A stretch of DNA of 64,000 nt from an uncultured Pirellulaceae bacterium (lineage in GTDB: Bacteria; Planctomycetota; Planctomycetia; Pirellulales; Pirellulaceae). The position numbers and the translations under genes are program-made. The stretch spans positions 579-64,578 of the forward strand of contig CAYSQZ010000003.1 in NCBI GenBank assembly GCA_964433035.1. The letters are read 5' to 3'. Shown piece after piece: positions 2,931 through 31,705 of this stretch. Under the pieces are notes generated by a model. The model made no database searches. It saw only the letters and a program-made list of their open reading frames with translations, and was not told where the DNA came from. Every line of letters starts with the position of its first letter. Within the stretch, counting starts at the first letter, position 1.

Positions 2931-3082
2931 GCACTGTCTGGCAATTTCATATTGGGCTGAGCGGCTAGTGCAACAAACGGTAATTGATGTTCCATGAGTG
3001 CGAGATCTTGCCAAGCCTTCCTTCTTTTCGCTACTAACAGAAACGTTTTGCCAAAATTGAAGTCACCGATGGGTAACCAAAG

Positions 3083-3140
3083 CCACGAATCACACGAATA
3101 TTAGCGTGATAGAATTCGTGTTTATTCGTGTGATTCGTGG
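3083..3140. repeat. Palindromic CACGAAT/ATTCGTG element, copy 1
   Basis: An 18-bp perfect inverted repeat, CCACGAATCACACGAATA (3083-3100) / TATTCGTGTGATTCGTGG (3123-3140), with a 22-nt spacer. The heptamer ATTCGTG is iterated 3x on the right side. It is homologous to 38454-38521. Confidence 0.85.
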
Positions 3141-3461
3141 CAGAACGATTCGCTTACGTTCTAATCGCCAGGGATTCTAGCCACTGATTTTCACAGATTG
3201 ACACGAATGTTGCGCGGCCAATCCGTGGCTTTTTAAATTCCGACAGATCCGTCCGGTTTGAAGCAGTCTGTATCCAGTTAATACAGTTTCAAAATATTCA
3301 GAGTTGGCTTCCCATGAAACCGGACTTACCGTTTGGTTGCACTAGCTACAGTTAAACAACGCAACGAACCGGTTGCCGCTCACATTTAACAAACAGTGCC
3401 TTGTGGTCCTTCAGCGTGAGCATAGATATCACCGACTCGCAGTACTTACTGGTGCTGCGTT

Positions 3462-4505
3462 CTAATCGTCGTAGTCGATCGTTATCCGCTGCCCTGTTTC
3501 GGCGGAATCATAAGCCGACACAACAATTTTCATTGCTCGGTAAGCGTCCAGCGGGTCAGTTGTTTTTCGAATCAAACTGGTAACCGCGCGGTGGAAGCGG
3601 TCAAGCATCTGCTCGCCGACAGGACGCTCGGACTCCAGCGATTCGGTATGCTGGCCAGCATCATCAAACCAGATCAAGTTCGATGGCAAATCAATAAATG
3701 CCATGCCGTTTTCACAGCAGACTTGCAGCGACGCAGGCCGTTTGAAAGAAAGCGCGTCAGGCCAGCGCTCAGGAATGTAGTGTCCAACGCTTAACTGAGC
3801 CTGAGGAGTACATCCGGCACTGGCACCAGTCCATTGCGGCGAAGTTTGGCTTGGGAACGCGAGGCTGACCATCTGGTAGAACAAATCGATGCCGCTATCG
3901 TGTTGTTCATGAATGGCACTGATAACTGATTCCGGGTCATCGTTGACCAAATATCGACACCAATCGACCAACTCCATCAAGTGCCGCCATGCGAGCGGGC
4001 AATACTCGCCTCGTCGCAACGAATTCGATTGGCCTTCCATAGGCATTCGCTCGTGACAGAACAACAATCGGGGAGGACCAAGCCGGGTGGCCATGAGTTC
4101 TTTGAGGCGAATGGTCGCCGGGGCATGGCGGCGCGGAAGCTCTGCCATGAACGCAACACCCGATTGATCGATCCGCTGTCGTATTTCGAGGGCTTGTCCC
4201 TGAGAGACATCCAAAGCCGCCGAGCTATAAACTGCTTTACCGGCCTCGCACGCAGCTAAGATTGGCAGCGGGCCATACCAGTCGGGAGATAGTGCCAACA
4301 CCGCATCGATATCGTCCCGCTCAACCATAGCCCGAAAGCCGTCCATGGCGATGGCGTTAAATTCTTTGGCAGCCTGGCGGGATTTTTCGGCGACTTCACA
4401 GCAGATCGCCCGGACTTCAAACCGATCGCAGAGCGACAGTAATGCTGGGCGATGCCTGGTAAGCCATTGATCTCCAAGCCCAACTAAACCGACGCGCAAT
4501 TTCAT
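3462..4505 (-). CDS. Gfo/Idh/MocA family oxidoreductase
   Basis: N-terminal Rossmann motif MKLRVGLVGLGDQW. Length is about 347 aa when started at the internal ATG at 4505. The listed ORF extends to 4670, but the extra N-terminus looks non-native. Confidence 0.8.
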   Translation of the reverse strand: MKLRVGLVGLGDQWLTRHRPALLSLCDRFEVRAICCEVAEKSRQAAKEFNAIAMDGFRAMVERDDIDAVLALSPDWYGPLPILAACEAGKAVYSSAALDVSQGQALEIRQRIDQSGVAFMAELPRRHAPATIRLKELMATRLGPPRLLFCHERMPMEGQSNSLRRGEYCPLAWRHLMELVDWCRYLVNDDPESVISAIHEQHDSGIDLFYQMVSLAFPSQTSPQWTGASAGCTPQAQLSVGHYIPERWPDALSFKRPASLQVCCENGMAFIDLPSNLIWFDDAGQHTESLESERPVGEQMLDRFHRAVTSLIRKTTDPLDAYRAMKIVVSAYDSAETGQRITIDYDD

Positions 4506-14248: not shown

Positions 14249-15841
14249 CTACTTCCAAACGTCGCGGTCCAACATGCGATAGTTGATGGCTTCGGTTAAG
14301 TGATTGAACAGAATCTGATCCGAGGAATCCAGATCCGCAATCGTTCGCGCGAGCCTGAGGACTTTGTCGTGGGCGCGTGCCGAAAGCCCTAGTTCGTTAA
14401 CGCTGACTTTGAGAATGTTGATGCCCTCGGCGTCAAGTTTGCAATACTCGCGAATTTGTCGACTGGTCATTTGTGCGTTGTAATTGATTGAGGTTCCCTG
14501 GAAACGCTCGAGCTGCGCTTTTCTCGCATTGACGACTTGTTCGCGAATCACCTGGCTTGAGGTTCCAAGTTTCTTGGAAGATAGCTCTTTGAAATCTGCG
14601 GCAGGGACTTCAACATGAATATCGATTCGATCAAGTAGCGGACCCGATATCTTGCCCATGTAGCGTTCGATTTGTGGAGACGAGCAGTTGCAGTCTCGAC
14701 GCGGGTCGCTGCGGTAGCCGCAGGGACATGGGTTGAGCGCCGCGACCAGCATGAAATCGCAAGGGAACGTCGTGGACCGCAATGCGCGGGAAATCGTCAC
14801 GATTCGATCTTCCAGCGGTTGCCTGAGAACTTCCAGTGTTCGTCGATTAAATTCGGGAAGCTCATCAAGAAAAAGCACGCCATTATGGGCCATCGAGATT
14901 TCACCCGGCATCGGAATACTGCCACCACCGACCAATCCCGGTTGGCTGATAGTATGGTGCGGCGAGCGAAAGGGCCGGGTTGCCATCAATGGTTGGCCAG
15001 CTTTGAGTCGTCCCGAGGCGCTATATATTCGCGTCGTTTCAATTGATTCGTCTGGCGAAAGTTGTGGCAGCACAGTAGGGATTCGCTTGGCCAGCATCGT
15101 CTTTCCAGATCCCGGCGGGCCAAGCATCAACAGGTTGTGAACTCCAGCGGCCGCGACAGCGATCGCACGCTTGGCCATCTCTTGCCCGCGAACATCTGAA
15201 AAATCAATTTCATATTTCGAGAAGTCATCGAACAGGTCTTCGATCCGTGAGGGGGTTGGAGCGATTTCGAGTTGCCCGGAAAAGAAAGCCGCAGCCTGGG
15301 AGAGTGAATTGACCGCGATGACTTCAAGGTCCTGTACCACGGCGGCCTCGAACGCATTCTCTTGCGGTACCACAATCCCAACGAAACCAGCTCGCTTGGC
15401 CGCGATTGCCATTGAAAGCACGCCCTTTGCCGGTCGCGTATGACCTTCGAGCGCCAGTTCACCAACCACGGCATAATCTTGCAGTCGATCAGACTGAAGC
15501 TGCTTGCTGCCAATCAAGATCCCCAGCGATATTGGTAGGTCAAACGTTGCGGCTTGTTTGGGCAACTCAGCCGGGGCCAAGTTGATAACGATCCGATCAG
15601 CGGGCCGTTGAAATCCAGAATTGACCATTGCTCGTTCGCAGCGATGGGTGCTTTCGCGGACGGCAGCCTCGGGCAGGCCAACAAGTATCGTCTTGGGTAA
15701 TGCACGTGGCGAAACATCAACTTCGACTTCGACCATCTGGGCTTCGATACCCAATAGCGAAAATGTCCGAAGCTTGGCCAAGAGACCTGAGCCATGGCCG
15801 AGTTCTGTTGAGGCGGAGGCGTTTGAATGTTGATCGTTCAT
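14249..15841 (-). CDS. comM: YifB/ComM family Mg-chelatase-like AAA+ ATPase
   Basis: N-terminal Lon-protease-like domain, Walker A LGPPGSGKTMLA, FLDELPEF Walker B, and a ChlI/MCM-like C-terminus. The start was chosen at the ATG at 15841; the ORF extends to 15919. Confidence 0.9.
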   Translation of the reverse strand: MNDQHSNASASTELGHGSGLLAKLRTFSLLGIEAQMVEVEVDVSPRALPKTILVGLPEAAVRESTHRCERAMVNSGFQRPADRIVINLAPAELPKQAATFDLPISLGILIGSKQLQSDRLQDYAVVGELALEGHTRPAKGVLSMAIAAKRAGFVGIVVPQENAFEAAVVQDLEVIAVNSLSQAAAFFSGQLEIAPTPSRIEDLFDDFSKYEIDFSDVRGQEMAKRAIAVAAAGVHNLLMLGPPGSGKTMLAKRIPTVLPQLSPDESIETTRIYSASGRLKAGQPLMATRPFRSPHHTISQPGLVGGGSIPMPGEISMAHNGVLFLDELPEFNRRTLEVLRQPLEDRIVTISRALRSTTFPCDFMLVAALNPCPCGYRSDPRRDCNCSSPQIERYMGKISGPLLDRIDIHVEVPAADFKELSSKKLGTSSQVIREQVVNARKAQLERFQGTSINYNAQMTSRQIREYCKLDAEGINILKVSVNELGLSARAHDKVLRLARTIADLDSSDQILFNHLTEAINYRMLDRDVWK

Positions 15842-16011
15842 TTCAAGACTTTCTTGTGTATGAACGAGGCAACAGATCTGCTGCACTGTTGGTGAAACAG
15901 TGGGCGTAATCTCGTCCATACACGACTAAAGTTAATGTAGAAACGGAAACGTCAAAGTTGTTGATCAAAGTTGAGATGCAGTTGTGATAATCTTTGTGTG
16001 TTTGAATATTT

Positions 16012-17034
16012 TTACTTGTATTTTTTAGCGATCCTTTTAACCGTCTCAGCGAATTCCTTTTTTGCTTTGGCTGGGCCGATCACTTCGGCGTCATCCATCA
16101 AGCTCATCACTCGCGGAAAAATCTCCAGTTTGTTTGACGATGGAACGGACAATTCAATGTCGCCGTTTTTGAGCTGTTTGATTTTTTGATCTGGATGCCA
16201 AGGATCTTCGGCCACGAAATTTGCGGCCTTGGCGGCGATGCGAATCTTGAAGTTCTGCGGCGTACCAACAAAAATTCCCATGCCTTTACCAACAAAGTCA
16301 TCCCAGTTCATGCCTTTGGGCATCTTGAACCAGGCATCTTCAATGGTAGCCTTGCTGAAACGATCCAGCTTCAACGAACGCATTCGTTTTTCTGTGTCTT
16401 CCTGAGTCTCGTTGGGCATCTCACAGGCGCCGCAAATGATGTAAAGACTGCTCTGGAACAGTGCGATCGTGTAAGGCTCGATGCGACGTGTCTTTTTAGG
16501 TTTTCCCGGAGCCTGATATTCGATCTCTACCGTCCGATGTTCAACGATAGCGCGATTTATCGTTTTGATCATGCCATGATGTTTTTCATAGCTTTTGGTG
16601 GGAACACCGAGGACGCGTAATGTTCGCGAGTATTTTTTGTAATGATCAAGCACACCAGCCGGGACGCCCTCCTGAATCTTTTTCCAGAATGACTCGATTC
16701 CCATCCAGAACGGAGTGCCAGCCAGAGGGTGAAGCATTTCACGACCAAGCGACAAAGCGATCAATTCAGTCGCCGAGAAGCTGATTTTTGTTGTGGATTT
16801 GGCACGCGGCCCCAGCTTCCAAACTTTTCCTCGCTGAGAGTCATGAACGTCGACGTCGATTCCAGCAGCCTGGAGGGCTTCGAGATCGCGGCGAAGCGTG
16901 CGGGTGTGCAGCGACGTCAGGCCCAGCTCGTCCATAATGTCAGCCTGAAGCTCGGCCAGAGTTTTACCAAAGCGGACTCGCTCCAAGACCTGAAGGACCT
17001 TGTGTTGGCGGATTAGTTGTTCGTTTCTCGCCAT
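16012..17034 (-). CDS. HTH + WYL domain transcriptional regulator
   Basis: N-terminal winged-HTH (RQHKVLQVLERV...TLAELQADI...RTLRRDLEALQAAGI) and a central WYL-type block (RRIEPYTIALFQSSLYIICGA). It is divergent from the QueC-like gene. Confidence 0.75.
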   Translation of the reverse strand: MARNEQLIRQHKVLQVLERVRFGKTLAELQADIMDELGLTSLHTRTLRRDLEALQAAGIDVDVHDSQRGKVWKLGPRAKSTTKISFSATELIALSLGREMLHPLAGTPFWMGIESFWKKIQEGVPAGVLDHYKKYSRTLRVLGVPTKSYEKHHGMIKTINRAIVEHRTVEIEYQAPGKPKKTRRIEPYTIALFQSSLYIICGACEMPNETQEDTEKRMRSLKLDRFSKATIEDAWFKMPKGMNWDDFVGKGMGIFVGTPQNFKIRIAAKAANFVAEDPWHPDQKIKQLKNGDIELSVPSSNKLEIFPRVMSLMDDAEVIGPAKAKKEFAETVKRIAKKYK

Positions 17035-17401
17035 AATGGTTCGTGTTGGGGATTCCTGATGATCGTCTACTGAAATTTCGAATTGGGTTTCACATTATCT
17101 ACTTTCGTCAACAGCTCGCCAACCACCAGCGCCATTGTTGCATGCAAAAACAGGTCGCATTGCGCCCATTGCTTCGTTCGCCAGATTGTGACGATCCAAT
17201 CAATTGCTTCATGTGCTCGCAAACTTGGCTATTTAAAGAATAAAAACGCGACTCGGAAGAGCTGCCTTACAAACTCGCTAACAAAATGAACCTCCAGGAT
17301 TCATCAGCATTTAATCGGAAAAGAACTTCAAACCGGTCTGAAACTTGATACATTTTACGGCTCAATTGCCACAGAGTTCGTGATCCAGAAAGTGCGGAAG
17401 A

Positions 17402-18202
17402 ATGTCGAAAAAAAGGCGAGCAGTGATTTGTTTGAGTGGCGGAATGGACTCAACTTCGTTGCTCTTGCGTTTGTTGGCTGAGGGGAGAAAAGTCTACGGG
17501 CTAAGCTTTGACTATGGCCAAAAACATCGCATCGAACTTGAGCGGATGAAAGCCAACGTCGATTATCTGCGTGAGAACAATTTGGAAATCGATTCTCAGG
17601 TTCTCGAGATGTCCAAGCTGGGATCGTTGTTTCACTCAGCCCTCACCGATTCGAATTGGAAAGTCCCGACAGGGCATTACGAACAGGAGAACATGAAGCA
17701 AACGGTCGTGCCTAATCGAAATGCGATTTTTTCATCGATCGCGTACGGCTACGCACTTTCGATCGCGGTGCAAGAAGATGCGGAGGTGGATTTTTGTCTC
17801 GGCGTGCACAGTGGCGACCATGCGATATATCCCGATTGTCGCCCCGAGTTTTATGAAGCGATTTTTAATGCGTTTAAGATCGGCAACTGGGATTCGGAGA
17901 AAGTCTTCTTGAATGTGCCGTACATCAACATGGATAAAACCGATATTCTTCACGATGCTAACGAGTCGATTGAAAAGCTTGAACTCGATTTTGATACGAT
18001 TTTCAAAAACACCTGTACTGGCTATCGTCCAGACAAAGAAGGAAAGTCCCACGGTTTAACGGGCGCCGACGTTGAGCGAATTCTGGCGTTCAATGCCTTT
18101 GGTAGGCGGGATCCGATTGAGTACCTTCAGCCATGGGACGAAGTCGTTGGGCAGGCGTTAAAATTGGAAAAGCAGCACAGAGAAGAAGACACGCACGCTT
18201 GA
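17402..18202 (+). CDS. queC: QueC-like PP-loop ATPase (7-cyano-7-deazaguanine synthase family), atypical C-terminus
   Basis: SGGMDS PP-loop, YGQKH, VPNRN and YPDCRPEF motifs. The C-terminal CxxCxxC zinc cluster expected in QueC appears replaced (..NTCTGYRPDKEGKSHGLTGADVERILAFNAFG). Confidence 0.7.
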   Translation: MSKKRRAVICLSGGMDSTSLLLRLLAEGRKVYGLSFDYGQKHRIELERMKANVDYLRENNLEIDSQVLEMSKLGSLFHSALTDSNWKVPTGHYEQENMKQTVVPNRNAIFSSIAYGYALSIAVQEDAEVDFCLGVHSGDHAIYPDCRPEFYEAIFNAFKIGNWDSEKVFLNVPYINMDKTDILHDANESIEKLELDFDTIFKNTCTGYRPDKEGKSHGLTGADVERILAFNAFGRRDPIEYLQPWDEVVGQALKLEKQHREEDTHA

Positions 18203-21938: not shown

Positions 21939-23300
21939 TTAATTTGCTGGAACTTTAGTCAGTTCATCTTTAAGCACCGTGTCCAAGGCTTTTTCCGCGA
22001 TCGTGATCGTCTCATTGACATTCAAGTTGCCCTTGAGAATGTAAGACGAGTTGACGATGTAGAGGCCATCAACCGAAGACTTCATGGGCGGCAGCAAGTC
22101 ACTGTAACCCAACGTCGGGATTGCCATTACTGTTCGGACTCGCGAGATCTTGAAATCAACGACGTCTTGGCGTGTGAAGTCGGGATACATTCGATCCAGT
22201 GCCGAAAGAAAGCTCTCCTGAATCTCTTCATCGGATTTCTCAAACAACTCGTGCTCTGCGGGAACATACTTGGGAAGGAATACAAGCGACTGACCCTTAA
22301 GCTCGTCTGGGTCAACGATAGTCGTCATCTCAATCACCGCAGTCATCGGCACCCAGTCATCAGTGATGTTGGTGACGTAGTAAGGTGAGATTGGTTTTTT
22401 AAGCAGAACCGAAGCACAAATAATCCCGAGGTATTCAACTTTGTCGAAACGATCGCGTTCATCCTGGCTCAAGTCGGTACAGACACGGCTCAAAATTGAG
22501 TTGGGCGTCGTCATGATGACTTTGTCGAAACGCTCAGCCGGCTTGTTGTCGTAAGAAATCGTAAACCGACCGTCTTCGTCCTTGGTGACTTGGGAGATCG
22601 GAGAATCCGTACGTACATCGACGTCCAATTCGTCGAGAACCGCAGCAAGGCGATCGATAATTTTTGAGTATCCGCCAGTGACGTAACCAAACATTTCTTT
22701 TTTAAGTCCGGTACGACGGGCTTTGTACATTCGACTGATGCAGGCCCAGATAAACGAAGCCGATGTCTTCTTGTAGCTTTCACCGAGTTTGGCTTTTAAC
22801 AGCGGTTGCCAGATTTTTTCAAAGGTGCCCTTGCCAGACCAGCGGGTTAGCCAGTCGGCAACCTTGGTATGCTCAAGTCGCTGCCAGTTTTTGATCTTGG
22901 AAGCGTAGAAAATTGTTGCCCCCAGTCGGAGCTTTTCAATCATCGTCAGCGGGGGGAATTTGAGGAATTCCGCGGTGTCGGACATCGAGTAAAGGGTGTC
23001 GTCGGTGTAGAATCCTGTCTTGGTTTCGATCCATCGCAGGTCGTCGCCCAAGCCGATTTCCTCAACCAGATTCCGCGTTCGCGAATCCGACAGTAGCGTG
23101 ACATGGTAGTGCTTGTCAAAAACAACATCGCCAATGTTCCATACGCCAGCCAAACCACCAAGCGTTGGCGCCGCTTCGATCAACGTGACGTCGTGACCTT
23201 GTTTGGCCATCCGCATCGCAAGAGTCAGGCCAAGCATTCCGCCACCTACGATGGCAAATTTTGTTTTCGATTCAGTTTTGACAATCATGTTGTTGAGCAA
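21939..23300 (-). CDS. FAD/NAD(P)-binding oxidoreductase (amine oxidase / phytoene-desaturase-like family)
   Basis: N-terminal dinucleotide fold FAIVGGGMLGLTLAMRMAKQGHDVTLIEAAPTLGGLA. About 450 aa. Confidence 0.8.
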   Translation of the reverse strand: MLNNMIVKTESKTKFAIVGGGMLGLTLAMRMAKQGHDVTLIEAAPTLGGLAGVWNIGDVVFDKHYHVTLLSDSRTRNLVEEIGLGDDLRWIETKTGFYTDDTLYSMSDTAEFLKFPPLTMIEKLRLGATIFYASKIKNWQRLEHTKVADWLTRWSGKGTFEKIWQPLLKAKLGESYKKTSASFIWACISRMYKARRTGLKKEMFGYVTGGYSKIIDRLAAVLDELDVDVRTDSPISQVTKDEDGRFTISYDNKPAERFDKVIMTTPNSILSRVCTDLSQDERDRFDKVEYLGIICASVLLKKPISPYYVTNITDDWVPMTAVIEMTTIVDPDELKGQSLVFLPKYVPAEHELFEKSDEEIQESFLSALDRMYPDFTRQDVVDFKISRVRTVMAIPTLGYSDLLPPMKSSVDGLYIVNSSYILKGNLNVNETITIAEKALDTVLKDELTKVPAN

Positions 23301-23711
23301 GTTGTAGAGAGGTGTATCTTTTAAAAAGTGCTTTTAGAATCAATATTAATTGGCTAACATTTAAGTTCTTCTCAGGTTGTGGGCTCAAGTACGCTAACGG
23401 TCTAATGGCGGGGCAAAAATAAGGATCACTCGGGTTGTAACGATTGGAATTTGACGACTTGATTAGAACGTTTTGAGCCCTTCGGGTTTTCGAGAGTTCC
23501 CGCTCCGCTCCCTTGCATTGTTTCGCGGAAAGGCTTCGCCAACGTCGGGCCAAATATTGGCAACTGAAATTGGGCGCAACCTTTTGGTGGGTAAAATTAG
23601 CAGCTCAAGTTTAAGCACCTGAAGTTCATATTCCAGTCAAAACGCTCACAAACGAGAATTTAGCCAATAGAGATTCAACTCGATTTCCCCTTAAACGAGC
23701 ATGTTGGAAGA

Positions 23712-24797
23712 ATGAGTGACTATCTGAACCGAATCGAAGAAGAATGGCGCGAGCGTGCTGATGAGCTTGGTCGTTGGGCAATGGAGCGCTTGGTCAATCG
23801 GACTGATATTTGGGGAAGATATTTGGCTCCCAAGTATCGAGGTGAAGATCAGAAGAACAAAGCGATCACTGCCCCATTTAAACAGGAACGTGGCAAGATC
23901 TTTCTTCAGGAATCGTCGCTGGTCAAGCATTTCAAGTCCAGGCCTGGAGGGGGGATTCTTGGACTTCATAGCGCATCAAGTGACGGTACGTCACGATGGT
24001 TTGCGATCGACATCGATTTGCATGATGACGATGATCTGTCGGTGACTAAAGAAAGCAACTACGTCGCCGCGGTGGCATGGCGGAAGCAGTTGGTCGAAAT
24101 GGGATTTGATCCACTGCTGACCGATTCCAATGGAAAAGGCGGTTTCCACTTGATGGTCGTTTTTCAAAGACCGATGGCAACCAAGTCAGTATTCCATTTC
24201 GTTGAGCGGTTGATTTCAAATTATCAGAAGCTGGGTTTGGATCGAGAGCCCGATGTATTCCCTAGCTCGGCAACCAGTCATCAAGGCGGTTGGCTCCGTC
24301 TGCCGGGCCGCCATCATACCAAGGCGCACTTCACTCGGGTTTGGAACGACGAGCCGTGGGCAGAGGACAAAATCTGGCTGGAGGGGCATGAAGCGATCGA
24401 TCGAATTCTCGATCTTGGGTTGGCCAGTGAGTCGAGTCTTGTTGCGCAGTCAATGAACGTCAAGTCGCGGACCATTTGTCTGGATTTTGATGGTGTGATC
24501 CACTCCAATCAACATGGCTGGCAGGGAGAGGCCGTGATTCCCGATCCTCCGATCCACAAAGTCGATCAAGCGATTGCGGAGTTGCGAAAAGACTACCGAG
24601 TGGTTGTGTTTTCGGCGCGGTGTCGAACCGACGAAGGCGTCGAAGCGATTCGGGCTTGGCTGGTCAAACACAATATCGAAGTTGACGAAGTCTGCCGCGA
24701 CAAGCCCCCGGCACATGTCTACGTAGACGATCGCGCGGTTCGATTCTCGGGTGACTGGCCGCAGACGATTGCAGAGATCCATAATTTTCGCAAGTGA
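23712..24797 (+). CDS. Fusion protein: archaeo-eukaryotic primase (prim-pol) domain + HAD-superfamily phosphatase domain
   Basis: AEP motifs: FAIDIDLHDDDD (DxD), GGFHLMVVF (sxH) and WLRLPGRHH. The C-terminal HAD motifs are ICLDFDGVIH (DxDxV), VVFSAR, RDKPPA and YVDDRA. Confidence 0.65.
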   Translation: MSDYLNRIEEEWRERADELGRWAMERLVNRTDIWGRYLAPKYRGEDQKNKAITAPFKQERGKIFLQESSLVKHFKSRPGGGILGLHSASSDGTSRWFAIDIDLHDDDDLSVTKESNYVAAVAWRKQLVEMGFDPLLTDSNGKGGFHLMVVFQRPMATKSVFHFVERLISNYQKLGLDREPDVFPSSATSHQGGWLRLPGRHHTKAHFTRVWNDEPWAEDKIWLEGHEAIDRILDLGLASESSLVAQSMNVKSRTICLDFDGVIHSNQHGWQGEAVIPDPPIHKVDQAIAELRKDYRVVVFSARCRTDEGVEAIRAWLVKHNIEVDEVCRDKPPAHVYVDDRAVRFSGDWPQTIAEIHNFRK

Positions 24798-24842: not shown

Positions 24843-27167
24843 TTAAAGAACTACCAACCGCCAACACCGATGGATTCGCTTGTTTCGAAAATCTTCGGGT
24901 ACGGTTTGTTTGCTGATTTCGCGGCACTCGAACTTTGGTAGTGCGGCCGGATCAAATTTAAAGCGTCGAAAGTTGGTCGAGAAATAGACCACGCCGCCGG
25001 TTCGCATGATTTGATGGACAAGGTCCAGAAGTTCAACATGGCACGATTGAATTTCCCAATCCTGATTCGTCTTTTTACTGTTGGAAAACGTGGGTGGATC
25101 GACGACTGCCAGATCGTACATCCGCATCGGGTTGTCAGCAGCCGATTTTAGAAACTCCAGAATGTCCGACTGAATAAAATTATGTTTGGAGTCACTCAAT
25201 CCGTTGACGTCCATATTCTGCTGCGCCCAATCCAAGTAGTTTTTGGAAAGGTCAACGGTTGTCGTTGAGCTGGCGTGGGCTTTGGCGGCGTACACTGAGA
25301 ACGAGCCGGTGTAAGCGAACAAGTTAAGGAAGTCTTTGTCTTCGGCTTCGTTGAACACCATCTGCCGAGTCTTGCGATGGTCGAGAAAAAGTCCGGTGTC
25401 GACGTAGTCGGTCAAGTTGATCAAAAATTTCAAGCCGCCTTCATTGACGGTGGCAATCTTTCCAGCCCGCGAAACCTTTTCATACTGCCGATTGTTTTGG
25501 TCTTTCTTGCGCCGCTTCAAATAAACGTTGGTCTCTGGAATACCGAGCGTCTGGGCAGCAGTCTCGCACATCAGATCAAGCCATTGGGCATGGCGGGCGA
25601 TGTCTCGCTCGTGAGGCCGCTCATATTCAGTGATGTGCAGGTAGTCTTCGTAACGATCGACAACCAAAGGGATCTCCGGGATGTCACGTTCGTATAGTCG
25701 GAAACAGGTAATGTTCCGCTTGGTCGGCCAGCGACGAAGATGGCGGGCCAATTTAGTCAAACGATTTTTAAACAGCCCCGCTTGCTCACGGTCTTTGTCG
25801 GTCAATCCACCAAACAACGCGGTCGGTTGCGATTCCTCGGCGGAAGTTGAATCAGGAGCAGAGTCAGTATCGTCCGTCGTCTTCGGTGGTGTTGCCGCAG
25901 CGTTTTCTTCTCTTTCTTCATCTACCGCGATACCGCTGAGGTCGGGTTGAGCGTCCTCGATGGGTTTCCAGTCCGATTGGGTTTTGGCAGTAGTGGCCGA
26001 AGATTCCAAAGCGGCGACATCAGAAGTCTCGCCTCCGCGATTTGGTCGTGGTGGCCGAGGCCCAAGGAATTGATAGTAAGTGCACTCCAATCGCCCGTTG
26101 AAAAGTTTCCGTCGCCGCGTCGCCTGTTTTTGAATCAGCCCTTCAAATTTGGGCATATTGGTGATCAGAAACAGAGACCAGGTTGGTAGACGCTGCATGA
26201 TAGCCGGGATGGATTGGTAGAGTCCGATCAACCGTTGTTGCTGGTCAAGTCGTTCTCCGTAGGGCGGATTGGTAACGATGCAGCCATACTTTCGATCGCT
26301 CCGCAATTCGGCAAACGGCTTCTTTTGAAAGTCAATGTATTTGGTCACACCTGCTTGGTCCGCATGGTAGCGGGCTTTGTCGAGTACGTCGGCGTCGCGG
26401 TCCGAGGCAATGATCTCCATCTCAATATCGGTTCGCTTCAGATCATTGGCTTCCTCGGAGGCCGCATTCCAGAGCGATTTGTCAATCGTGAGCCATTGGG
26501 ACGAAGCAAAGTCTCGGGAGATTCCTGGAGCAATATTGCACCCAGCAAGCGCCGCTTCGATGGCGATTGTTCCCGAGCCGCAAAAAGGGTCCACCAGCAG
26601 GCGACCGGGACGCCAAACGCTAAGGTTGACCAGAGCGGCACCAAGCGTTTCCTTGATTGGAGCTTCGGCAACCAATCGTCGGTAGCCGCGTTTGTGAAGA
26701 CTTGGACCTGTGGTGTCGAGTGTTAACGTCGCGACGTCGTTGAGCAGCGCAACTTCGACTTTGTAGGTCGCGCCCGACTCGGGGAGCTCAGCGACTCCGT
26801 GGTGCTTTTGCAGGCTTTCGACTAAAGCTTTTTTCACCGTCCGCTGGACCGCTGGAACACTGGTGAGCTCCGAACGTCGTGATTTTCCCACAACCGGAAA
26901 CGCCGCGTCTGCTGGAATGTACCGGCTCCAGTCGAAGTCTTTGACTGTGTCGAAGAGCGCATCGAAGTCCGGACTTTCAAATTGCTGGATCTGAATTAGA
27001 ACTCGATCGGCGGTTCTAAGCCAGATGTTTGCTCGGCAGACTGCCGTCCAATCGCCTTCGAAATCAATCCGGCCAGGCTGCGAGACTTTCGGTTGATAGC
27101 CAAGTGCGATCAGTTCGCGTTTTACGAGGGCTTCAAGTCCAAACGCACACGCAGCAGTTAGTATCAA
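24843..27167 (-). CDS. rlmKL: Bifunctional 23S rRNA methyltransferase RlmKL (THUMP + two SAM-MTase domains)
   Basis: N-terminal GLEALVKREL/THUMP region, the NPPYGERL motif, and a second C-terminal MTase domain. The inter-domain linker is acidic and low-complexity. Confidence 0.8.
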   Translation of the reverse strand: MILTAACAFGLEALVKRELIALGYQPKVSQPGRIDFEGDWTAVCRANIWLRTADRVLIQIQQFESPDFDALFDTVKDFDWSRYIPADAAFPVVGKSRRSELTSVPAVQRTVKKALVESLQKHHGVAELPESGATYKVEVALLNDVATLTLDTTGPSLHKRGYRRLVAEAPIKETLGAALVNLSVWRPGRLLVDPFCGSGTIAIEAALAGCNIAPGISRDFASSQWLTIDKSLWNAASEEANDLKRTDIEMEIIASDRDADVLDKARYHADQAGVTKYIDFQKKPFAELRSDRKYGCIVTNPPYGERLDQQQRLIGLYQSIPAIMQRLPTWSLFLITNMPKFEGLIQKQATRRRKLFNGRLECTYYQFLGPRPPRPNRGGETSDVAALESSATTAKTQSDWKPIEDAQPDLSGIAVDEEREENAAATPPKTTDDTDSAPDSTSAEESQPTALFGGLTDKDREQAGLFKNRLTKLARHLRRWPTKRNITCFRLYERDIPEIPLVVDRYEDYLHITEYERPHERDIARHAQWLDLMCETAAQTLGIPETNVYLKRRKKDQNNRQYEKVSRAGKIATVNEGGLKFLINLTDYVDTGLFLDHRKTRQMVFNEAEDKDFLNLFAYTGSFSVYAAKAHASSTTTVDLSKNYLDWAQQNMDVNGLSDSKHNFIQSDILEFLKSAADNPMRMYDLAVVDPPTFSNSKKTNQDWEIQSCHVELLDLVHQIMRTGGVVYFSTNFRRFKFDPAALPKFECREISKQTVPEDFRNKRIHRCWRLVVL

Positions 27168-29247: not shown

Positions 29248-30756
29248 ATGTCTTTCGAAGTTCAAAGGGAGCTACCAGTGACACAAACCATTTCAAACAA
29301 CCGACTGCTCGAATACCTGGCAACCGCTTGCACCAGCACGGGGCAGGCAACGTTCTACAATTCGCGAGAAGAACAGTCTGGGGCACTGGCTGAACTTCAC
29401 GCTGGCGTATTAAATGTTGACCGTCGCGCGTACACGCTCTCGGCCGCTTTGCCGATCAACGACCGTAACCGACAGGAGATCGTTTACAACTTGATCGCTC
29501 AAGGCGTCGCGACCGAGGATCGAGAGCTGGAAAACCAGGCGATCGAATATGTTATTCGCGAGCTGCCTTTTAGTCGTTGGTTAAAACTTTTGGTACGTTT
29601 GAGTCGTAACAAAGTCAACAACGCTCGCTTGCGGCGCATTTGCCGGGAGTTCTGGAACAAGTACGGTGACGCGTACCACGCGATCAAGTACCGAGCGAAG
29701 TTTCGAACCGTTTTGCGCCATTGCCACATCGGCGAAGGCGAAGATCCGCATCGGGCTGAGGTTCATCGCTGGATCTTTGGGCGCTTGCGAAATCCTGCAG
29801 ACGTTCAGCACAACCCATTGCTTCGTTCGCGATTGACTGCGGCAGACGACCTGGGAGCTTGCTTTGACCTTCCACTGGAAATCGGTCGCGATATTGCAGT
29901 GGCTTGCCACGGAATGAAGCCGAAAGAGTTCACCGAGCAGTTTGCTGGAAAAAGCGAAACCGAATCGGGCGACGCAATCGTTGCTCGTGGTCGCGCGACC
30001 CGTAAGCAATCTTTGATTGCAAATCGTCAAGCCGGTACTGACGTTGACTTTAAGCGGTTCGAATTGATCGAATTGCTTCAGCATGGTTACCGGGTGCGAG
30101 ACGACCAGGAAAGCCCGGAAGCGTTCGCCAAGATCCGTGACGAGTTGTACGCCGCAATCGATTTGCAGGCAAAGCGATTGGCTCGCAACTTGCAACTGCC
30201 TGACAATGTACACGCAATCGTTGACAACAGCGGTAGTGCACGTGGCAGCGACGAGCGAGCTTATCACGCGTTAGCTGTGATCGAAGCGACGTTCCGTGTC
30301 ATCGGAGCTGCGTCCGAAAAGTTGGGTACGTCGTTGACGTGCCACTTTGTTGGTGACGCAGGCGAAGGCAACACGTTGCTCAGTCCAGCCGGAGGTACCG
30401 ACTTGCGGCGACCGCTGGCCCGTGCCTTGGCGGCTCGGCCTGACATGGTAGTCATTCTGTCGGACGGCTACGAGAACGTATCGGCTGGTAGCGTTGCCCA
30501 AATTCTGGCGACCCGCGCGGTGCGGGAAAGCGGGATTGGCGTCGTTCATTTGAACCCGGTCGCTGCGGCTGAAGCTGGCGGTACGCGCCGATTGGCCGAG
30601 AACCTGCCAACCTACGGCTTGGCTGATCCAAAGCAACTGTCGATTTCGTTGTTGCTGGGTGAAGCCACGACCGACACACGTCGATTGTTTGCTTTGTTTG
30701 ATCGAATTGAAATTGCTTTAAAAGGAGACCACGATGAAATTGCACGAATTGTTTAG
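29248..30756 (+). CDS. Divergent TROVE-domain + vWA-domain protein (Ro60/Rsr-like)
   Basis: Three N-terminal blocks resemble Ro60/Rsr sequences:
- RLLEYLATACTSTGQATFYNSREEQ, compared with Ro60/Rsr RFLxLGxEGGTYY
- ARLRRICREFWNKYGDAY
- YHAIKYRAKFRTVLRHCH, compared with AVKYxQRxGWSHRDLLRLxHP
The C-terminal vWA region has the MIDAS motif IVDNSGSA (DxSxS) and VVILSDGYEN. Confidence 0.6.
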   Translation: MSFEVQRELPVTQTISNNRLLEYLATACTSTGQATFYNSREEQSGALAELHAGVLNVDRRAYTLSAALPINDRNRQEIVYNLIAQGVATEDRELENQAIEYVIRELPFSRWLKLLVRLSRNKVNNARLRRICREFWNKYGDAYHAIKYRAKFRTVLRHCHIGEGEDPHRAEVHRWIFGRLRNPADVQHNPLLRSRLTAADDLGACFDLPLEIGRDIAVACHGMKPKEFTEQFAGKSETESGDAIVARGRATRKQSLIANRQAGTDVDFKRFELIELLQHGYRVRDDQESPEAFAKIRDELYAAIDLQAKRLARNLQLPDNVHAIVDNSGSARGSDERAYHALAVIEATFRVIGAASEKLGTSLTCHFVGDAGEGNTLLSPAGGTDLRRPLARALAARPDMVVILSDGYENVSAGSVAQILATRAVRESGIGVVHLNPVAAAEAGGTRRLAENLPTYGLADPKQLSISLLLGEATTDTRRLFALFDRIEIALKGDHDEIARIV

Positions 30757-31705
30757 CGAGCTGATGATTGGTCAGCCGCAAACGGTCGGTAACATGACCG
30801 TGATCCCGTTGAGCAATCGTTCCAATGCAGAGCCTCAGTCGCGTGCCAATGTTGGTTCAAGTCGAGATCTGTTTCTGGAGCGTGACGAGAGCTACAACTC
30901 GCTGGTGTTGGGTACGCATGCCGACTATGTCACGATCGTACCGCAAGGTATGGCCTTGATTACTCGGCAGCGAGCCCAGGACCGTGCGATTCCCAGCACG
31001 CACCTGGTACATACGACTCCAAAGAAAGTCGGCGCGTTTTGTATTCAATCGAGCCAATGTGGTCTGATGAGTAAAGATCGCAGCTCAGAACACAAACTGC
31101 GGATGCTGCCGTTGGCAGTTCGTTACGAAGCGTATTTGCGTCGCAATGAGTCGGCTGAGTCGTTCAGCTCGCTGTGGCAAAAGCTGGGACAATGGAATCA
31201 CCGATCTGGCGTTAACGGTGACTTCCTGGTCAGCTTTTTCCAGCAGTACGCTCGGAACCTCAGCCAATTTGTGGCCCAGTTCGAGCTTACGCCTCAGCAG
31301 CGCGGTGCGATCGTTCTGATCAACGGTCGACTGGCAGGTGTCGAAGTGGCGCCTAACAGCGAATACTTTGCTGGCCTTTTTCAACCGCTAATTCGTGACT
31401 GTTACGGTGCCGAAGCGATGTTGGCGCGTGGCGAAGCGACGCCTAAGGCGAGTGAGCTATTGTCAGACGTGAATTCGCTTGATGATCTGGTCGCCGCTGT
31501 CGACGAGTTGGCTGAGACCGAGAACCGGTTTGCAGCCGATGTTGCGCAGGAAGTTCAGACGTTGGCGATGCAGTCCAGCGATGACCACGCGTTGGCGGGT
31601 TTGAAAGTCGTCAACATGGACGGGGCTTCGCTCGCTGGTCAGGGTGTTTATTCGGATCAGGCTCGGGGCTTGGTCTACGCCTCGTTGATGGCCCGTCCAG
31701 CGTAG
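30734..31705 (+). CDS. Unknown protein translationally coupled to the TROVE/vWA gene (possibly DUF6569/ARPP-1-like)
   Basis: Its ATG overlaps the upstream CDS by 23 nt and is preceded by AAAGGAGA. The N-terminal GNMTVIPL, RAQDRAIP and AFCIQSSQCG blocks resemble my memory of that DUF. This is unverified. Confidence 0.55.
   Translation: MKLHELFSELMIGQPQTVGNMTVIPLSNRSNAEPQSRANVGSSRDLFLERDESYNSLVLGTHADYVTIVPQGMALITRQRAQDRAIPSTHLVHTTPKKVGAFCIQSSQCGLMSKDRSSEHKLRMLPLAVRYEAYLRRNESAESFSSLWQKLGQWNHRSGVNGDFLVSFFQQYARNLSQFVAQFELTPQQRGAIVLINGRLAGVEVAPNSEYFAGLFQPLIRDCYGAEAMLARGEATPKASELLSDVNSLDDLVAAVDELAETENRFAADVAQEVQTLAMQSSDDHALAGLKVVNMDGASLAGQGVYSDQARGLVYASLMARPA

Follow-up and report, generated by a model that had tools for sequence, protein, structure and literature searches.

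A bacterial genome is usually credited with end joining when it encodes Ku and LigD, and is otherwise scored as lacking nonhomologous end joining (NHEJ). In the Ku-LigD systems of M. tuberculosis, P. aeruginosa, and B. subtilis, NHEJ combines polymerization by an AEP (archaeo-eukaryotic primase), cleaning of 3' ends by a phosphoesterase, sealing by an ATP-dependent ligase, and end binding. The same set is predicted for the planctomycete genes described here, for which the LigD polymerase domain (PolDom) is a significant fold match and the low-confidence model of the operon protein K1 matches bacterial Ku structures. The parts differ, however. The polymerase belongs to the CAPP/TOTE/mobile-element clade of AEPs and not to the LigD clade, and where LigD has its LigD_N phosphoesterase, there is a phosphatase with a HAD fold. 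The ligase, which is divergent, is a protein of its own; K1 shows no sequence similarity to Ku that could be detected; K2 comes in addition; and the genes occupy two separate loci in this genome.

Several other described systems resemble this gene set in some of their components. T4 polynucleotide kinase/phosphatase (PNKP), mammalian PNKP, and Clostridium Pnkp1 likewise pair a HAD phosphatase with nucleic-acid repair enzymes. The profile and fold matches to these 3'-phosphatases are weak, and they are paired with a 5'-kinase, whereas the HAD domain described here is paired with a polymerase and is of the smaller, stand-alone type represented by the 2obb/1xpj family. In D. radiodurans, the gene for an end-healing enzyme adjoins the gene for the ligase LigB. 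This Deinococcus pair provides a precedent for an ATP-dependent ligase whose partner is an end-healing HAD enzyme (PMC1997131). The mycobacterial LigC/Prim-PolC excision-repair complex (PMC5663958) is similar in having a stand-alone AEP, a stand-alone ATP-dependent ligase, and a plausible gap-filling role; however, Prim-PolC has no fused phosphatase and comes from a LigD-like clade of AEPs. The closest solved AEP structure is that of CAPP (PMC8211822; PDB entries 7nqd, 7nqe, 7nqf, and 7p9j), at a sequence identity of only 13-16%. Whereas CAPP occurs together with Cas1/Cas2 and other CRISPR components, either fused to them or in association, the HAD fusion described here has no CRISPR context. 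Finally, mobile-element-type AEPs can take part in end joining, for which AgaPP (PMC11724360) and IEE (PMC9943667) provide precedents. No paper describing the gene set as such was found.

The window analyzed here, a 64,000-nucleotide stretch of the genome of an uncultured Pirellulaceae bacterium, contains a plus-strand gene coding for an AEP-HAD fusion, flanked, as originally described, by minus-strand genes on both sides:

21939-23300, minus strand: amine oxidase gene, flank of the AEP-HAD gene (from the annotation)
23301-23711, no strand: intergenic region of 411 bp between the divergent amine oxidase and AEP-HAD genes, upstream of the latter, scanned for RNA, promoter, terminator, and k-mers
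23712-24797, plus strand: AEP-HAD gene, an open reading frame translated into 361 amino acids (aa) plus a stop codon
24417-24458, plus strand: short interdomain linker, residues 236-249, of variable length in the family
24843-27167, minus strand: RlmKL gene, flank of the AEP-HAD gene (from the annotation)

The GC content of the gene is similar to that of the surrounding DNA. An Rfam search of the locus gave no match, a scan for sigma-70 promoters and terminators gave nothing convincing and nothing above chance, and, in a crude comparison, no k-mer was common to the sequences preceding the fusion gene and those preceding the ligase operons discussed below. The AF2 model of the whole protein (pLDDT, 94.1; pTM, 0.89) suggests, on the strength of its pTM, that the two domains have a fixed mutual arrangement. 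In the distant relatives P0123, P0133, and P0145, the linker is far longer and basic; P0133 shares 36-37% identity with the AEP-HAD protein of the window. Conservation was assessed in an alignment of 19 family sequences, with relatives down to 34% identity, in which residues D100, D102, H146, R196, G199, H201, D258, D260, R303, K331, D339, and D340 are invariant. Judging from this alignment, both domains retain their predicted catalytic residues, which are subject to purifying selection.

The N-terminal part of the protein includes the following features:

23712-24416, plus strand: AEP prim-pol domain (residues 1-235), with a helical extension at its N-terminus (residues 2-26), from Pfam, sequence, and Foldseek matches
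24009-24017, plus strand: AEP motif I, D100-I-D102 (IDIDLH), with D100 and D102 invariant in 19 family members
24147-24149, plus strand: AEP motif II histidine H146 (GGFHLMVVF), invariant in the 19 aligned sequences
24252-24254, plus strand: predicted AEP motif III acidic residue D181 (EPDVFP), D or E in 19 of 19 sequences, aligned with the EIFP segment of CAPP
24297-24314, plus strand: RLPGRH block after motif III (R196, G199, and H201), residues invariant

The presence of motifs I, II, and III on an AEP fold places this domain in the AEP superfamily, and the Pfam assignment, the CAPP structure matches, the AF2 model, and the invariant motifs all agree with the N-terminal prim-pol domain that had been proposed from the sequence. 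Motifs I and II hold as initially quoted and are conserved, whereas the WLRLPGRHH segment had been mistaken for motif III: the third catalytic acidic residue would be D181 in EPDVFP. The RLPGRH block presumably has a nucleotide-binding role, as expected from general knowledge of AEPs. The Pfam match to the AEP-TOTE family (PF22548) covers residues 50-192 with an E value of 6.6e-6 and a score of 26.3 bits, 0.7 bit short of the 27-bit cutoff; since precomputed PF22548 matches are present in many orthologues, the protein can be considered to lie at the edge of this family. That the best Pfam match is to a conflict-system family counts against the repair function proposed below. The best sequence match of the AEP domain in PDB is to the CAPP Prim-Pol structures 7nqf/7nqd. 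CAPP Prim-Pol also comes up on top in Foldseek (E value, 6e-9; TM score, 0.76 over 219 residues), with further fold matches to LigD PolDom (E value, 1.5e-4; TM score, 0.45-0.49), S-2L PrimPol, Prim-PolC, and human PrimPol. The nearest folds are thus those of the primer-extending, gap-filling enzymes CAPP, LigD PolDom, and Prim-PolC, which speaks for a repair function. The LigD polymerase profiles (PF21686 and TIGR02778) gave an E value of 0.14 and 12 bits, against cutoffs of 27.4 and 214.7, respectively; the likeness to LigD that was found is at the fold level only. Over residues 8-235, the protein shares 40-48% identity with the N-terminal parts of mobile-element primase-helicases that carry PriCT, D5_N, or DUF3987 domains.

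The C-terminal part contains a phosphatase domain with the following features:

24459-24794, plus strand: cap-less (C0-type) HAD phosphatase domain, residues 250-361, from PHROG, Pfam, HAD-IIIA, and fold matches
24483-24491, plus strand: HAD motif I, D258-F-D260 (LDFDGV), nucleophile and acid/base, invariant
24612-24614, plus strand: HAD motif II, S301 (FSAR), S or T in 19 of 19 sequences, with the neighboring R303 invariant
24702-24704, plus strand: HAD motif III, K331, invariant
24726-24731, plus strand: HAD motif IV, D339-D340 (YVDDR), invariant

Membership of this domain in the HAD superfamily follows from the four motifs and the fold matches. Residues 242-359 match PHROG 23773 (E value, 9e-20) and PHROG 1238 (3e-15), and there are weak matches to HAD_SAK_2, HAD-IIIA, and EcbF/BcbF; the HAD_SAK_2 profile (PF18143) scores 18.1 bits, below its cutoff of 27.5. 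The Foldseek matches of this domain are 2obb and 1xpj, followed by GmhB, Pnkp1, and T4 PNKP. Stand-alone homologues of this domain are 115-125 aa long and 50-60% identical to it. In the model, strand 1 of the ∼112-aa domain is connected to the next helix by nothing more than a 25-residue loop, with no cap module. Together with the conserved residues and the PHROG and fold matches, this bears out the initial description of a C-terminal cap-less HAD domain with four motifs. The weak matches to the polynucleotide-kinase/phosphatase families PHROG 415 and 505, with E values of 2e-4 and 9e-3 for PHROG polynucleotide-kinase families, are in line with a role in repair; conversely, the substrate of the HAD domain could be a nucleotide instead of a DNA end.

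Full-length relatives of the fusion protein number 864, with 59-96% identity among the matches listed; those that carry names all come from Planctomycetota, for the most part from Pirellulaceae. The fusion is rare and patchy, being encoded in 7 of the 401 genomes of the order (an order-level set of genomes at least 90% complete). Its chromosomal position is kept across the genus, among housekeeping neighbors. No integrase, tRNA, helicase, PriCT domain, or repeat boundaries were found at the locus. With synteny conserved and tRNA, integrase, and helicase genes missing, insertion of a mobile element was rejected, and the gene is not an isolated insert of this kind. QueC is encoded directly upstream of the fusion in about 11 loci. 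A functional link was rejected because this is the sole queC of the genome and the other neighbors (Rho, AspRS, and a Ser/Thr kinase) are housekeeping genes. In genome G021, all that remains of the fusion is a HAD fragment interrupted by stop codons, and the search for the ligase was negative, which suggests that the two were lost together.

The ligase in question is encoded elsewhere. Contig C341 of the same genome, away from the fusion contig, carries an intact operon K2-K1-Lig, and genome-wide searches detected a single ATP-dependent ligase, on C341, and no canonical Ku. The preliminary description, which saw in the fusion the logic of LigD without the ligase, was supported as to the logic but not as to the absence. 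It had correctly noted that no ligase or Ku is encoded nearby, which holds for the annotated flanks of the gene (about 13.4-33.9 kb of the window), while in some relatives the ligase is adjacent to the fusion. This ligase (K0) contains a nucleotidyltransferase domain with the KxDG motif (here KIDG) and an OB domain, which identifies it as an ATP-dependent DNA ligase. It scores 40.7 bits against PF01068 (cutoff, 26.2), its orthologues are above the cutoff for both PF01068 and PF04679, and its best PDB sequence match is 4eq5 (E value, 6e-11). It is a divergent, separate protein with a C-terminal extension of ∼100 aa.

This ligase is encoded in 29 of the 32 species genomes found through the fusion, mostly on other contigs, compared to a background of 12 of 401. 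Among the 401 genomes, 7 carry the fusion, 12 carry the ligase, and 6 of the 7 fusion genomes carry both (Fisher P = 1e-9). At the genus level, the ligase is found in 4 of 5 genera with the fusion versus 9 of 179 (P = 1.5e-5). As the genomes are related, these tests overstate independence. The proposed survey of phyletic distribution and neighborhoods thus revealed a rare planctomycete fusion that almost always has a divergent ligase in the same genome. In genome G626, from another family of the phylum, both genes are present and unlinked. The fusion adjoins the ligase operon or is embedded in it in 5 of 32 loci: between the ligase and its MerR-TPR neighbor K3 in L042, L046, and L048, and separated from the ligase by one gene in L044 and L051. 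About half of the genomes with the ligase operon do not encode the fusion, which makes the latter an optional extra. Canonical Ku is encoded in 2 of 32 fusion genomes versus 73 of 401 in the background (P = 0.05); this mild depletion is too weak a trend to accept mutual exclusion of the fusion and canonical Ku. A stand-alone LigD_N-like gene in the same genome was dropped as a further part of the system because 136 of 151 genomes of the order carry such a gene, whether or not the system is present.

In some of the loci, the ligase and the fusion have K3, a MerR-HTH plus TPR protein, as their neighbor. K2, which has a conserved acidic C-terminal tail, DLMDFGMI, had no match in Pfam, PADLOC, the PDB profile search, or ESM Atlas. 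K1 had none in Pfam (including Ku, PF02735), NCBIfam, PADLOC, the PDB profile search, or ESM Atlas, and an hhalign comparison with 33 planctomycete Ku proteins was not significant (probability, 5%; P = 0.008). Pfam searches with K1, K2, K5, and K6 yielded no family at all, and hhalign found no relationship among these four proteins or between K5 or K6 and Ku. Nevertheless, structure searches with the poor K1 model (pLDDT, 57) returned Ku-type proteins exclusively: the top 16 matches in VIA were all Ku or Ku-like β-barrels (Z scores from 6.6 to 4.3), including Ku from M. tuberculosis and B. subtilis, and the top 50 in Foldseek were all Ku (E values from 1.6e-4; TM scores of ∼0.25). In L048, L070, and L071, K1 is fused to the ligase. 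Based on its model, K1 is probably a very divergent, putative Ku-like DNA-end binder.

Given the near-constant presence of the ligase operon with its Ku-like protein, the most likely role of the fusion is to clean ends and fill gaps as part of a repair kit. We consider it fairly likely that the product of this gene is the end-processing subunit in a LigD-like DNA break-repair system, dispersed in the genome, that also includes K2-K1-Lig. In this system, the HAD domain would remove blocking 3'-phosphates at broken DNA ends or gaps, the AEP domain would extend the cleaned 3'-OH and fill gaps, and the dedicated ATP-dependent ligase would seal the nick, so that a trans-encoded polymerase and 3'-phosphatase subunit would serve end joining or gap repair. 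The substrates, the order of the steps, any physical complex, and the choice between double-strand joining and single-strand gap repair are what we infer for this system. A more far-reaching version, plausible if somewhat short of probable, is that Planctomycetes carry a complete NHEJ-type break-repair system unseen by sequence surveys. It would comprise K1 as a Ku homologue without detectable sequence similarity, K2 with its SSB-like acidic tail, the divergent ligase, and the polymerase-phosphatase with HAD as the end cleaner, the latter being, in Pirellulaceae, an optional part that is encoded in trans and has been recruited to the ligase core.

The same partners could instead repair single-strand breaks or short gaps, as a LigC/Prim-PolC-like pair with a PNKP-type 3'-phosphatase and no double-strand joining, which appears unlikely. 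A 3'-phosphatase is needed after β,δ-elimination by bifunctional glycosylases, which counts for gap repair. However, no glycosylase or AP endonuclease is a conserved neighbor in the planctomycete loci. To our knowledge, LigC has no Ku-like partner and no K2. The likeness of K1 to Ku is weak, but both structure searches gave Ku-type proteins only, which, together with the fusion of K1 to the ligase, points to end binding. Prim-PolC structures are among the AEP fold matches, and the LigC/Prim-PolC pattern of a stand-alone AEP with a stand-alone ATP-dependent ligase (PMC5663958) fits gap repair as well.

It is quite improbable that the fusion is an anti-phage or anti-plasmid effector of the TOTE kind, with the AEP making or extending nucleic acid against invaders and K3 acting as the sensor. 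TOTE systems combine TPR, OB, TBP, and effector proteins (PMC12458937), and K3 is indeed a neighbor of both ligase and fusion at certain loci; however, no TBP or cold-shock/OB family was detected in the Pfam search of K1, K2, K5, and K6, and the fusion is accompanied by a ligase and a Ku-like protein, with no nuclease or other toxic effector seen. AEP-TOTE is the best Pfam match, but its score is under the family cutoff. The distribution is rare and patchy and the nearest solved structure is CRISPR-associated, yet within the genus the locus keeps its place among housekeeping genes. In PADLOC, there is a weak match to the AEP part of DRT, but K1, K2, and Lig match none of its families and no known defense family was found at the locus; the conflict-system role suggested earlier has gained little support. 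Still less probable is a domesticated replication primase of a mobile element, with HAD acting on free nucleotides as a nucleotidase or pool sanitizer and the ligase link reflecting shared ancestry of accessory genes: despite the likeness of the AEP to primase-helicases and the existence of stand-alone and phage HAD homologues, labeled nucleotidases by some sources, it has to contend with the missing helicase, PriCT domain, integrase, and repeat boundaries, with ligase co-occurrence across several genera and families on unlinked contigs, and with three loci in which the fusion is embedded in the ligase cluster, which is hard to explain by chance.

If the LigD-like repair reading is true, this would be a third independent build of the "clean, fill, seal" kit, with a mobile-element-type AEP and a HAD phosphatase joined in one protein. 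The split arrangement offers a natural test, as genomes with the ligase only and those with the ligase plus the fusion can show what the fusion adds. The polymerase-phosphatase and the compact ligase may also be of use as enzymes. Should the gene set be a working repair system, inference of end joining from Ku and LigD would fail for a considerable group of bacteria of marine and soil habitats.

The AEP-HAD fusion is encoded by an open frame of 361 codons with a GC content like that of its surroundings. It is flanked by two housekeeping genes on the minus strand and preceded by a block of three further genes:

14249-15919, minus strand, ComM/YifB-type Mg-chelatase-like ATPase (upstream block)
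16012-17034, minus strand, WYL-WCX regulator (upstream block)
17402-18202, plus strand, QueC (upstream block)
21939-23300, minus strand, flavin amine oxidase (housekeeping neighbor)
23712-24797, plus strand, AEP-HAD fusion
24843-27167, minus strand, 23S rRNA methyltransferase RlmKL (housekeeping neighbor)

No tRNA genes are found within the window. The position of the fusion is kept within the genus, beside RlmKL and mostly after the amine oxidase. In G001, a genome of the same genus without the fusion, this slot is occupied by a family-2 glycosyltransferase-like gene (L027, contig C26, positions 2985 to 3866), flanked by RlmKL and the amine oxidase and sharing their strand. The ATPase/WYL-WCX/QueC block (14249-18202) is conserved upstream of the fusion in many relatives, and clustering of the neighbors over 32 related loci placed QueC directly upstream of it in ∼11 of them. 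QueC is the sole queC of the genome, so this link is probably plain synteny. Elsewhere in the window, an overlapping gene pair (29248-31705) codes for proteins of 502 and 323 aa. The first weakly matches vWA (CoxE-like), and the second matches ARPP-1/ARPP-2; these families are known from conflict systems.

The AEP domain matches the Pfam AEP-TOTE profile (residues 50 to 192; E value of 6.6e-6, 0.7 bit under the cut-off) and, faintly, the DNA_primase_S and LigD_Prim-Pol profiles. The HAD domain (residues 242 to 359) is recognized by PHROG 23773 (9e-20), PHROG 1238 (3e-15), and two “polynucleotide kinase” PHROGs (2e-4 and 9e-3), with weak matches to HAD_SAK_2, HAD-IIIA, and EcbF/BcbF. The closest PDB sequences are the CRISPR-associated Prim-Pol (CAPP; 7nqd and 7nqf) and the small HAD-like protein 1xpj. 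The AlphaFold2 model, built from a 92-sequence alignment, is confident (pLDDT of 94.1, pTM of 0.89). In Foldseek comparisons with the PDB, the top match of its AEP part is the CAPP Prim-Pol (E value of 6e-9, TM score of 0.76 on the target), followed by LigD polymerase domains, S-2L PrimPol, Prim-PolC, and human PrimPol, while the C-terminal part matches 2obb, 1xpj, GmhB, Pnkp1, T4 PNKP, and a deoxyribonucleotidase-like protein.

In an alignment of 19 family members with identity down to 34%, the AEP residues Asp100, Asp102, His146, Arg196, Gly199, and His201 and the HAD residues Asp258, Asp260, Arg303, Lys331, Asp339, and Asp340 are invariant; residue 181 is Asp or Glu and residue 301 Ser or Thr in all 19 sequences. 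The preliminary description had mistaken WLRLPGRHH for AEP motif III; this conserved block is located after the third acidic residue, Asp181 in EPDVFP, which aligns with the EIFP segment of CAPP. Given that the catalytic residues of both domains are retained, both active sites look functional.

The two halves have different relatives. Residues 8 to 235 show 40 to 48% identity to the N termini of many proteins of 220 to 1,200 aa that run on into PriCT_1, PriCT_2, D5_N, or DUF3987 helicase modules; such homologs are replication primases of mobile elements. Residues 245 to 361 share 50 to 60% identity with stand-alone proteins of 115 to 125 aa from Planctomycetes, Sporomusa, and other bacteria. 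The stand-alone 115-aa HADs of Sporomusa and other Negativicutes (P0419, P0424, P0439, and others) are 50 to 55% identical to the planctomycete HAD domain. Identity unusually high for phyla so distant suggests that the mini-HAD may have spread horizontally.

Full-length relatives of the fusion number 864, with 59 to 96% identity among the 120 matches listed. Those named to a taxon all belong to Planctomycetota, chiefly Pirellulaceae, including Mariniblastus and Aureliella; distant members (P0123, P0133, P0137, P0145, and P0195; 34 to 45% identity) have a longer, basic linker. The distribution is rare and patchy: within the same genus, 7 of 24 genomes encode the fusion, and among 401 genomes of the order with at least 90% completeness, 7 do. 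All that is left in G021 (88% complete) is a HAD remnant containing stop codons, right after QueC (L008, contig C282, positions 1510 to 1810), the AEP half being gone; neither the ligase nor K1 was found in this genome.

In 5 of 32 fusion loci, the neighbors are an ATP-dependent DNA ligase (Lig; ∼500 to 650 aa) and a 240-aa protein of no described family. The genome under study has the same pair of ligase and K1 on the 4.3-kb contig C341, with a third conserved gene, K2, in front:

C341 1022-1708, K2
C341 1795-2742, K1
C341 2745-4241, Lig

This contig (positions 1 to 4303, locus L078) carries the complete operon. Compared with their counterparts in L044, its Lig shows 60% and its K1 65% identity; K2 shares 65% identity with its ortholog in L076. 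Over 16 ligase loci, K2-K1-Lig makes up the core, and the gene after it is often K3, which codes for a protein with MerR-HTH and TPR parts. In three loci (L048:5854-7821, L070:7658-9703, and L071:7571-9616), K1 is fused to the N terminus of the ligase, giving products of 655 to 681 aa. In L042, L046, and L048, Lig and K3 are separated by the AEP-HAD gene; in L044 and L051, its distance from Lig is one gene. A second form of the cluster (L072, L074, L042, L046, and L048) has K5 (∼260 to 280 aa, divergent from K1) and K6 (∼200 aa) instead of K2.

The ligase is encoded in 12 of the 401 genomes of the order, including 6 of the 7 with the fusion (Fisher P = 1.1e-9). Counted by genus, the ligase is found in 9 of 179 genera, and these include 4 of the 5 with the fusion (P = 1.5e-5). 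Because related genomes are not independent, these P values exaggerate the association. The pattern recurs over several genera and families, on separate contigs. Among species genomes reached via the fusion, 29 of 32 encode the ligase, mostly on other contigs. The exceptions are G426 (80% complete; same contig as G007), G455, where the fusion is cut short by its 2.6-kb contig, and G457, with the most divergent fusion copy (45% identity). G626, which belongs to a different family of the phylum, also has both genes, unlinked. The dependence runs one way only, the fusion being absent from about half of the genomes with the ligase.

K1 and K2 fall into no described family and had no match in Pfam, PADLOC, PDB sequences, or Atlas clusters. 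With the poor K1 model (pLDDT of 57), the top 16 matches of an exhaustive VIA-align search were only Ku or Ku-like beta-barrels, including SPOC domains (Z scores of 6.6 for Ku80 and 6.1 for both the Mycobacterium tuberculosis and Bacillus subtilis Ku), and the top 50 Foldseek matches were all Ku chains (E values from 1.6e-4, TM score only ∼0.25). Profile-profile comparison with planctomycete Ku was not significant (probability of 5%, P = 0.008; two controls, P = 0.24 and 0.56), so K1 is referred to here as probably Ku-like rather than as Ku. More than 3,000 relatives of K1 are found in metagenomes. The C terminus of K2 is a conserved acidic tail, DLMDFGMI, reminiscent of the SSB tail. A search of the genome under study for canonical Ku found none; it is encoded in 73 of the 401 genomes of the order versus 2 of the 32 fusion genomes, a weak depletion. 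Flanked by Dus and a cyclophilin, this genome also encodes a stand-alone 134-aa protein resembling LigD_N, a 3'-phosphoesterase (contig C279:4061-4465; L119:1432-1836). Small genes like this one occur in 136 of 151 genomes of the order, irrespective of Ku, LigD, or the K2-K1-Lig/fusion system.

Full-text literature searches gave no description of an AEP-HAD fusion or of its combination with the K2-K1-Lig gene set. Related precedents are CAPP (PMC8211822), LigC/Prim-PolC (PMC5663958), AgaPP (PMC11724360), and a Deinococcus ligase/end-healing study (PMC1997131). Judging from the inferred functions of the parts, the most economical reading, and on balance a probable one, is that the fusion and K2-K1-Lig form a dispersed counterpart to the Ku-LigD end-joining system. 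The present data fit equally a less likely variant in which the same parts act on single-strand gaps, in the style of LigC/Prim-PolC. Still less likely is a TOTE-like role in conflict, to which the TPR protein K3 and the AEP-TOTE similarity of the fusion point; no known defense family was matched. In the end-joining reading, DNA ends would be held by K1 and possibly also by K2, the HAD domain would take off 3'-phosphates, and fill-in by the AEP domain and then sealing by the ligase would follow.
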